Source: a virus (lineage: Duplodnaviria; Heunggongvirae; Uroviricota; Caudoviricetes). From it: DNA of 9,874 nt. The stretch lies in IMG/VR virus record IMGVR_UViG_2711768008_000004, one strand, 5' to 3'. Made by a program: the position numbers and the translations under genes. This document shows positions 3,813-4,123 of the stretch, piece by piece. The notes under the pieces are model-generated. The model saw only the letters and a program-made list of their open reading frames with translations. It made no database searches and was not told the DNA's origin. Every line of letters starts with the position of its first letter. Positions within the stretch are counted from its first letter, which is position 1.

Positions 3813-3889
3813 GGCCCTTTAGCTCAGTTGGTCAGAGCGAGCGACTCATAATCGCCAGGTCGCTGGTTCAAGTCCAGCAAGGGCCACCA
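3813..3889 (+). tRNA. tRNA with anticodon CAU, ileX/ileZ-like (probable tRNA-Ile2, lysidine-modified, reads AUA; tRNA-Met not excluded)
   Basis: Cloverleaf folded by hand: acceptor GGCCCTT/AAGGGCC, D-arm AGCTCAGTTGG, anticodon loop CTCATAA, T-loop GGTTCAAGTCC, discriminator A, encoded CCA. Near-identical to E. coli ileX as I recall it. Confidence 0.85.
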
Positions 3890-3890
3890 A

Positions 3891-3967
3891 CCACCACTAG
3901 CTCATCCGGATAGAGCATCAACCTTCTAAGTTGACGGTGCGAGGTTCGAGTCCTCGGTGGTGGGCCA
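3891..3967 (+). tRNA. tRNA-Arg (anticodon UCU, reads AGA/AGG)
   Basis: Acceptor CCACCAC/GTGGTGG, anticodon stem TCAAC/GTTGA, loop CTTCTAA (anticodon TCT), T-arm CGAGG-TTCGAGT-CCTCG, CCA encoded. Starts 1 nt after the previous tRNA. Confidence 0.85.
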
Positions 3968-3969
3968 GC

Positions 3970-4045
3970 GCCGACTTAGCTCAGCAGGCAGAGCAACTGA
4001 CTTGTAATCAGTAGGTCACCAGTTCGATTCCGGTAGTCGGCACCA
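3970..4045 (+). tRNA. tRNA-Thr (anticodon UGU, reads ACA)
   Basis: Acceptor GCCGACT/AGTCGGC, anticodon stem ACTGA/TCAGT, loop CTTGTAA (anticodon TGT), T-loop TTCGATT, CCA encoded. One A-C mismatch in the T-stem as I fold it. Confidence 0.8.
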
Positions 4046-4048
4046 TAT

Positions 4049-4123
4049 GCGGGCATCGTATAATGGCTATTACCTCAGCCTTCCAAGCTGATGATGCGGG
4101 TTCGATTCCCGCTGCCCGCTCCA
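4049..4123 (+). tRNA. tRNA-Gly (anticodon UCC, reads GGA/GGG), glyT-like
   Basis: GCGGGCATCGTATAATGGCTATTACCTCAGCCTTCCAAGCTGATGATGCGGGTTCGATTCCCGCTGCCCGCTCCA. Anticodon loop CTTCCAA. Appears identical or nearly so to E. coli glyT, from memory. Confidence 0.9.

Follow-up and report, generated by a model that had tools for sequence, protein, structure and literature searches.

A four-gene tRNA array in a lambdoid prophage of Escherichia coli most likely supplements the scarcest host tRNAs

What does a lambdoid prophage gain from four tRNA genes packed end to end between its antiterminator and its lysis genes? Such an array occupies positions 3813–4123 of the DNA analyzed here, a 9,874-nt stretch recorded as IMG/VR virus record IMGVR_UViG_2711768008_000004 (hereafter "the window"), which is a segment of a lambdoid prophage of E. 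coli; an integrase gene and an attachment site are absent from it. Its left part contains the genes for a DnaB-type helicase (46–1578), RusA (1832–2203), and the antiterminator Q (2172–2579, + strand; Pfam PF06530 Phage_antitermQ, E = 2.7e−52), followed by a P1 immI-like block of known RNAs matched by Rfam (c4-a1b1/isrK at 2607–2696, with matches starting at 2607 and 2620; C4 RNA at 2722–2805; and sRNA-Xcc1 at 2939–3022) and an ORF6N antirepressor ORF (2862–3623). A hairpin resembling an intrinsic terminator, with an 8-bp stem containing five G-C pairs and a T-run, is situated on the + strand at 3699–3727, 85 nt 5' of the array. Equivalent hairpins with different stem sequences occur upstream of the array in relatives (e.g., L040). 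An Rfam match to Trp_leader over this terminator was discarded, as it was well below the gathering score.

On the other side of the array, a noncoding trailer (4124–4621, + strand), masked at 4259–4621 (363 N), extends to a phage-21-type holin gene (Pfam PF04971) that is partial in the window and precedes the lysozyme gene (4723–5220). The genes for Rz, an HNH endonuclease, the small and large terminase subunits, and the portal protein follow in that order. The N-terminus of the lysozyme, which is hydrophobic and rich in Gly and Ala, resembles the signal-anchor-release segment of endolysins of the phage 21 type. The array is therefore located after Q and the antirepressor module and before a phage-21-type lysis cassette. 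The masked region was read from another IMG/VR contig, L103, whose sequence matches the window at 100% identity on either side of the masked stretch and which contains 659 nt in place of the 363 N. These 659 nt contained terminator-like hairpins (L103 positions 4365–4384 and 4720–4746) and the holin start, and no Pfam-recognizable ORF was found in them. The idea that the mask hides a toxin gene, at the position of stx, was rejected on the basis of this Pfam result in L103.

ARAGORN called exactly four tRNA genes within 3813–4123, all on the + strand, and all four exceeded the gathering score of 29 of the Rfam tRNA model RF00005 (E-values, 3.5e−14 to 2.7e−10). In order, they are a tRNA of the Ile2 type with anticodon CAU (3813–3889; 70.5 bits), tRNA-Arg with anticodon UCU, for AGA/AGG (3891–3967; 56.4 bits), tRNA-Thr with anticodon UGU, for ACA (3970–4045; 69.8 bits), and tRNA-Gly with anticodon UCC, for GGA/GGG (4049–4123; 64.9 bits). 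The second gene occupies the position that varies within the array family, here called slot 2. The spacers between the genes are 1, 2, and 3 nt. Each anticodon loop (CUCAUAA, CUUCUAA, CUUGUAA, and CUUCCAA) is 7 nt long, with U33 and A37 throughout, and all four genes encode CCA. The four tRNA genes are intact. Minimum-energy folding of the single sequences yielded no cloverleaf for the Ile2 and Thr tRNAs, a result that we regard as uninformative for tRNAs, and an Rfam match to Plastid-ycf2 antisense to the tRNA genes was dropped because it fell well below the gathering score. The array and its four anticodons were thus as given in the initial annotation, made from the sequence alone, although its statement that they decode only A-ending codons is too strong: tRNAs with U34 also read G-ending codons by wobble, and tRNA-Thr probably reads U-ending codons as well.

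To trace the origin of each gene, we aligned the window genes with ileX, argU, thrU, glyT, and metT of E. coli K-12 and with the ileZ-argN-argO cluster of a Stx2a phage. The comparison with the Stx cluster is based on the annotated record and its sequence; a full-text literature search for ileZ/argN/argO, alone or together with Shiga toxin, yielded no results. The label Met that ARAGORN gives to the CAU gene is misleading. The gene shares 69/77 positions with ileX and 74/77 (96%) with the Stx phage ileZ but only 54/78 with the elongator metT, and identical copies are annotated as tRNA-Ile in RefSeq; it is thus of the Ile2 type and not Met, as had been proposed. Its acceptor stem (GGCCCUU/AAGGGCC) has both C4-G69 and C5-G68, as in ileX, whereas metT has U4-A69 and A5-U68 instead. 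We take C4-G69 and C5-G68 to be TilS determinants, and the tRNA is expected to be modified to lysidine at C34 and to read AUA.

The slot-2 Arg gene matched argN of the Stx phage at 64/77 positions, host argU at 58/79, and argO at 46/77. Judged by these identities, it is a relative of argN, and argO, which is the UCU gene of Stx phages, is unrelated. The earlier suggestion that the first two genes form an Ile2-Arg pair typical of Stx-type phages thus holds for their kinship with ileZ and argN but not for the anticodon, since argN carries UCG and the window gene carries UCU on an argN-like body. Among 15 distinct relatives, standard pairs made up 95.6% of the pair cells in the slot-2 cloverleaf, and compensatory double changes were seen at four pairs; slid controls gave none, with 29–54% paired.

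The Thr gene differs from K-12 thrU at only two positions (74/76 identical), both in the D-loop (U16C and U20C), and its anticodon arm (ACUGA-CUUGUAA-UCAGU) is the same as that of thrU. The Gly gene is identical to K-12 glyT (75/75). Both thrU and glyT belong to a single host operon, thrU-tyrU-glyT-thrT-tufB, and by this comparison the Thr-Gly pair is derived from host genes, in agreement with the capture and the glyT-like Gly gene initially proposed. The spacer between the two genes is TAT in 119/132 arrays. This is compatible with the loss of tyrU and its spacer from the host operon, although three bases constitute weak evidence.

A predicted σ70-type promoter lies immediately upstream of the array on the + strand (3775–3803), with TTGCAG (3775–3780) separated by a 17-nt spacer from TATTAT (3798–3803); a promoter scan listed the same site as TTTGCA-18-TATTAT. 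Between TATTAT and G1 of the first tRNA, there is only a 9-nt G+C-rich stretch. When the region was aligned with six relatives, including the Stx2a phage, the TTGCA and TATTAT columns were invariant, whereas the spacer and the upstream DNA varied. Among 36 distinct upstream sequences from 108 arrays, 34 kept TTGC, and the second hexamer was TATTAT, TATCAT, or a close variant. The array thus appears to have its own promoter with a very short leader, and because this conserved promoter lies just upstream, expression of the tRNAs is probably not restricted to late transcription. We also considered whether the phage promoter mirrors that of host ileX. This was rejected: the ileX TTGCGA is only 13 nt upstream of TATAAT, which ends 10 nt before the mature 5' end, so that ileX shares the short-leader layout only and not the −35 spacing. 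A second promoter-like site (TTGACC-18-TATATT) is found on the + strand just after Q, at 2584–2613, as scanned in the identical contig L103 (2567–2596 there; window = +17). It is a candidate late promoter that may feed isrK, C4, and the antirepressor and, by antitermination, the array.

The array is widespread. Counting genomes in which the 311-nt array was covered at ≥80%, we found it or its sister with Lys(UUU) in approximately 603 of 5,426 complete E. coli genomes (~11%, or one in nine), where it is already annotated in RefSeq. When the Thr-Gly junction was used as the query to scan IMG/VR contigs and representative genomes, it was detected in more than 120 IMG/VR contigs and in the representative genomes of E. 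coli (three copies), Shigella flexneri (three), Citrobacter braakii, and Enterobacter hormaechei. The junction loci comprised 51 CAU-Lys(UUU)-Thr-Gly arrays, 33 CAU-Arg(UCU)-Thr-Gly arrays, 19 with Thr-Gly alone, and a few with odd slot-2 genes. The slot-2 anticodon varies among the relatives, being UCU, UCG, or UUU (the last with an atypical C33), and odd forms with a short loop also occur. The Gly gene was identical to glyT in 115/132 arrays; the Thr gene was identical to thrU in 81/132 and had the window allele in 29/132.

The edges of sequence similarity to 127 related loci fell at the ends of the block: similarity stopped at 4123–4127 in 105 loci and started at 3796–3813 in 68 and at the Thr gene (3965–3970) in 19, for a total of 87. 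Prophages differ in what adjoins the block: at least three Q types and at least three lysis cassettes occur next to it. Viewed through these alignments, the array is a self-contained mosaic module in which the tRNAs show strong conservation even as the DNA on either side is exchanged. The proposal that the array marks a site of recombination is therefore supported in the form of a recombination module, as the similarity edges coincide with the block ends in most of the related loci.

We next compared codon usage with a host baseline of 88 K-12 genes (28,923 codons, annotated coordinates). In this sample, ATA, AGA, ACA, and GGA occur at 3.4, 1.3, 4.9, and 7.4 per 1000, respectively, each at or near the bottom of its codon family, as the claim that they are rare in the host had implied; AGG, which is rarer than AGA, is the exception to a rule that each is the least used of its family. 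Together, the four codons account for 17.0 per 1000 in the host sample (ratio, 1.0) and 40.0 per 1000 in all genes of the window (2.4; p = 6e−14), although the sample includes many well-expressed genes and probably overstates the ratios. The genome-wide K-12 frequencies of these codons are presumably somewhat higher, and the ratios would then fall. Across all window genes, the enrichment was 4.6-fold for AGA, 3.2-fold for ACA, 2.3-fold for ATA, and 1.4-fold for GGA. The codons that the initial annotation pointed out in the lysozyme gene (ATA at 4780 and 4840, GGA at 4882 and 4891, and AGA-ACA at 5065–5070) are all correct and in frame.

The distribution of this enrichment does not single out the late genes. 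The early genes of the window contain 52.7 of the four codons per 1000 (3.1-fold over the host sample) and the late genes 31.4 (1.85-fold), and within the late genes neither ATA (1.27-fold; p = 0.32) nor GGA (1.41-fold; p = 0.11) was significantly enriched. Single genes ranged from 156 per 1000 in the partial holin gene and 67 in the lysozyme gene to 26.6 in the portal gene and 13.9 in the large terminase subunit gene (TerL), the last being below the host sample. Lambda, which has no tRNA genes, showed a profile statistically indistinguishable from that of the window in both its early genes (55.1 per 1000, 3.25-fold; p = 0.82) and its late genes (26.0 per 1000, 1.53-fold; p = 0.23). Since the same profile exists without tRNA genes, the demand is a general feature of lambdoid phages, one that they evidently tolerate without additional tRNAs. 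CGG, CGA, and AGG were enriched as much as the four target codons, and the late genes of two other prophages with the same array showed 2.5- to 3.4-fold enrichment. Furthermore, in the most common sister array, slot 2 encodes Lys(UUU), whose codon is the one used most often for Lys (32 per 1000 in the host sample), and this does not fit a pure rare-codon rule. These results indicate a genuine codon bias, but one shared by lambdoid DNA in general, being neither specific to late genes nor special to tRNA-bearing phages; the host uses the four codons less often than the phage does, as a rare-codon supply requires, but this pattern does not discriminate.

Taking these observations together, we consider it somewhat probable that the block forms a tRNA operon with a promoter of its own, into which Q-antiterminated transcription can also read, and that it adds copies of host minor tRNAs and eases the decoding of codons that are overrepresented across the phage genome. 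The block would constitute a functional four-gene operon and a self-contained module of the lambdoid prophage, probably transcribed from its own stable-RNA-style σ70 promoter, whose end lies 9 nt ahead of the first tRNA, and probably also by Q-antiterminated RNA polymerase passing the upstream terminator. Host enzymes would then cut the tightly packed precursor, with its 1–3-nt spacers and encoded CCA, into four tRNAs. Once aminoacylated, these would duplicate the host decoders of the ileX, argU, thrU, and glyT types for AUA, AGA, ACA, and GGA. The extra copies may raise the decoding capacity for phage genes, among them the early genes and the lysis genes, and may thereby confer a fitness benefit, possibly extending to other horizontally acquired genes in the lysogen.

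The initial annotation had proposed a narrower function, a boost to late-gene translation. In this view, the tRNAs would be made as part of the late transcript and would serve specifically to speed protein synthesis from lysis and morphogenesis genes in which the four codons abound. The location of the array between Q and the lysis cassette, an arrangement shared with Stx phages, is in keeping with this view, as are the codon-rich partial holin and lysozyme genes just downstream and the overall enrichment in the late genes. The set is indeed phage-borne; a dedicated boost to late genes nevertheless seems unlikely, because the early genes are richer in the codons than the late genes, TerL lies below the host sample, the late genes match those of lambda, and a conserved promoter of the array's own follows the terminator and immediately precedes the first tRNA. 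It is very unlikely that the array is only a passenger, that is, a set of illegitimately captured host tRNA genes kept as homology patches for module exchange among lambdoid phages, with no selection for decoding. Such a scar would explain why Thr and Gly are host copies, why the module boundaries coincide with tRNA ends, and why one block is found with several Q types and lysis cassettes; however, the tRNA genes have stayed intact while the surrounding DNA was replaced or diverged, compensatory changes in slot 2 keep the cloverleaf, the promoter hexamers are kept while their spacer varies, and 11% of complete E. coli genomes carry an array of this family.

A further possibility is that the array makes up for host tRNAs lost to anticodon-arm nucleases of competing elements, such as P2 Old acting on tRNA-Thr(UGU), Gifsy-1 HepS acting on Thr and Ile tRNAs, and, for the sister arrays, PARIS or PrrC acting on tRNA-Lys(UUU). 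Old blocks lambda chiefly through cuts at paired CNG motifs in the anticodon stem of host tRNA-Thr(UGU); rescue comes from phage Thr(UGU) tRNAs whose anticodon arms are altered, that of lambdoid phage 21 among them (PMC12445682). HepS, which is activated by siphovirus tail tips, cleaves tRNAs for Thr, Ile, and Ser (PMC13043305), and PARIS cuts tRNA-Lys(UUU) (PMC11464382), the tRNA that in the sister arrays reads a common codon. The equal codon demand of tRNA-bearing and tRNA-less lambdoid phages also favors a role of this kind. In a few relatives (VL40, L037, and L107, and also L135, in which the stem is re-paired), we observed a Thr allele with a changed 3' strand of the anticodon stem, UCAUC; with it the stem becomes shorter or re-pairs, and a CNG motif is lost, a type of change linked to Old resistance (PMC12445682). 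These alleles suggest that nuclease pressure acts somewhere in the array family.

For the array in the window, however, defense against nucleases is improbable. The anticodon arm decides resistance to Old: resistant phage tRNA-Thr have altered CNG motifs and a shortened anticodon stem, and extra host tRNA-ThrU gives little or no protection (PMC12445682). The window tRNA-Thr has the UGU anticodon but neither of these changes, retaining both CNG motifs (C28-U-G30 and C40-A-G42) and A37 as in thrU. By the published criteria, this copy should be sensitive to Old and not protective; since its anticodon arm is identical to that of the host, an antinuclease role is unsupported for it. The Gly gene, moreover, is 100% host-identical, and we know of no nuclease with Ile2 or Arg(UCU) as its main target. 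A broader version, in which the whole array family is a modular counter-defense cassette against tRNA-cleaving rival prophages, with an evolvable slot 2 and a Thr gene toggling between host-identical and Old-resistance-like alleles, would place the window in the "sensitive" state; we regard it as quite improbable.

The supply of minor tRNAs thus remains our preferred reading. Three points are useful in practice. First, the correct annotation of the CAU gene is Ile and not Met. Second, every prophage of this type doubles the gene copies of three host tRNAs that are otherwise single-copy (of the argU, thrU, and glyT types), which may affect the expression of foreign genes rich in rare codons in lysogens. 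Third, the host-identical Thr and Gly genes give prophages and the chromosome patches of shared homology. The debate on whether phage tRNAs serve codon supply or defense evasion could be informed by the switching of the slot-2 anticodon and by the Thr alleles of relatives that resemble Old-resistant ones.

Among the closest known systems is the ileZ-argN-argO cluster of Stx2 phages (e.g., Stx2a_F349, AP012530), which is likewise downstream of Q, has the same promoter hexamers, and begins with two relatives of the first two genes of the array. By gene content, the window array falls outside the Stx cluster proper: argO is absent, the slot-2 anticodon differs, Thr and Gly come next, and the array is followed by the toxin-free trailer and then the holin gene, where stx follows in the Stx2 phages. 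In phages SfI, Sf6, ST64T, PS3, and 21, Q is also followed by genes for tRNA-Asn(GUU) and/or tRNA-Thr(UGU), which have been read as a supply for rare codons, with Thr(UGU) for ACA (PMC3636060). The window shares with them the lambdoid slot and Thr(UGU), and its holin is of the phage 21 type, but the gene set and lineage are different, and phage 21 reportedly has an altered, Old-resistant Thr anticodon arm (PMC12445682), unlike the near-copy of thrU in the window. Relative to the host thrU-tyrU-glyT-thrT-tufB operon, from which its Thr and Gly genes hardly differ, the window lacks tyrU, the 116-nt spacer, and thrT, has Thr and Gly only 3 nt apart, and is flanked by phage DNA. The T-even cluster (RB3/T4 type) also includes UCC, UGU, CAU, and UCU tRNAs a few nucleotides apart, a recurrence that agrees with the supply reading; however, it belongs to a virulent phage, comprises 8–10 tRNAs, is only ~80% identical to the window Thr and Gly genes, and is regulated differently. 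Compared with nuclease-resistant phage tRNAs (T5 tRNA-Lys against PARIS and phage tRNA-Thr against P2 Old), the window array shares the UGU anticodon of the Old-rescuing tRNAs, and its carrier belongs to the Old-restricted group, but their anticodon-arm changes are missing from the window copy. This kind of array is already known, because the identical array is annotated in public genomes and lambdoid tRNA genes between Q and the lysis genes are documented. It most likely tops up the scarcest tRNAs of the host, with nothing new in function.

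The second gene of the tRNA array, Arg(UCU) in the window, occupies a variable position at which related loci carry one homologous tRNA body with differing anticodons: UCU, UCG (Stx argN), and UUU. The UUU form is unusual in having C33 where tRNAs almost universally have U33. Forms of 73–74 nt, in which the D and anticodon loops are shorter, also occur; for these ARAGORN returned aaa, taa, tta (stop), or no assignment. Examples of genes at this position are found in the related loci L002 (6095–6171), L004 (5095–5171), L009 (3095–3171), L048 (1719–1792), L077 (2140–2212), L108 (3695–3767), and L109 (1652–1724). 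Decay, a switch between alloacceptors, or selective pressure from anticodon nucleases may underlie this variation.

In L040 and 18 other loci with only the Thr-Gly pair, the array lacks Ile2 and the variable gene and has a conserved hairpin of approximately 58 nt (GGTTCCGAGGG...CCCGAGGAACC; L040 2130–2200, minus strand), flanked by a TATTAT promoter hexamer on one side and the Thr gene on the other; no Rfam family matched this hairpin. The LT-IIb-converting Escherichia phage SerU-LTIIb (KU052038, region 1122–6368) is another toxin phage with tRNA genes in the slot of the window array; it carries an Arg-Gly and a Thr-Gly pair, each followed by a holin gene, and its enterotoxin genes lie downstream of the endolysin gene.

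Between the array and the endolysin gene, window positions 4259–4621 are a run of 363 N, and the counterpart in L103, an IMG/VR contig 100% identical on both sides of the mask, measures 659 nt (4242–4900); therefore, the mask length does not represent the true length of the DNA. Read from L103, the masked DNA contains two terminator-like hairpins (4365–4384 and 4720–4746) and the first 114 nt of a phage-21-type holin gene, and no Pfam-recognisable ORF was found within it. Further downstream, an HNH endonuclease gene (5724–6074) directly precedes the small terminase gene (6187–6690), a pairing that is usual in cos-packaging phages.

The interval between Q and the array holds a module (2584–3623) resembling P1 immI and Gifsy isrK-anrP. 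Directly after Q lies a promoter-like site (2584–2613), followed by Rfam matches to c4-a1b1 (2607–2659), isrK with its terminator (2620–2696), C4 antisense RNA (2722–2805), and sRNA-Xcc1 (2939–3022), and by an antirepressor ORF (2862–3623) whose ORF6N Pfam domain begins only at residue 79. In the window, isrK takes the position of the short pR' transcript of lambda.

The window Thr gene (3970–4045) differs from thrU of E. coli K-12 only by U16C and U20C, both in the D-loop, an allele common to 29 of the 132 arrays compared; in E. coli tRNAs, both of these positions are dihydrouridine sites. The Gly gene (4049–4123), identical to host glyT, has an anticodon stem with a paired CNG motif (C28-A-G30/C40-U-G42) and A37. 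This combination matches the sequence signature reported for substrates of the prophage nuclease P2 Old, namely a paired anticodon-stem CNG motif plus A37 (PMC12445682); the main text of that paper is silent on glyT cleavage. In some other Thr(UGU) alleles (L010 6270–6345 of E. coli VL40, L037, L107, and L135 4615–4690), UCAUC replaces UCAGU as the 3' strand of the anticodon stem, and in L135 the 5' strand is likewise altered, to GAUGA, restoring pairing. Such changes remove a CNG motif, shorten the anticodon stem, or both. The P2 Old resistance of phage tRNA-Thr has been attributed to changes of this type (PMC12445682).
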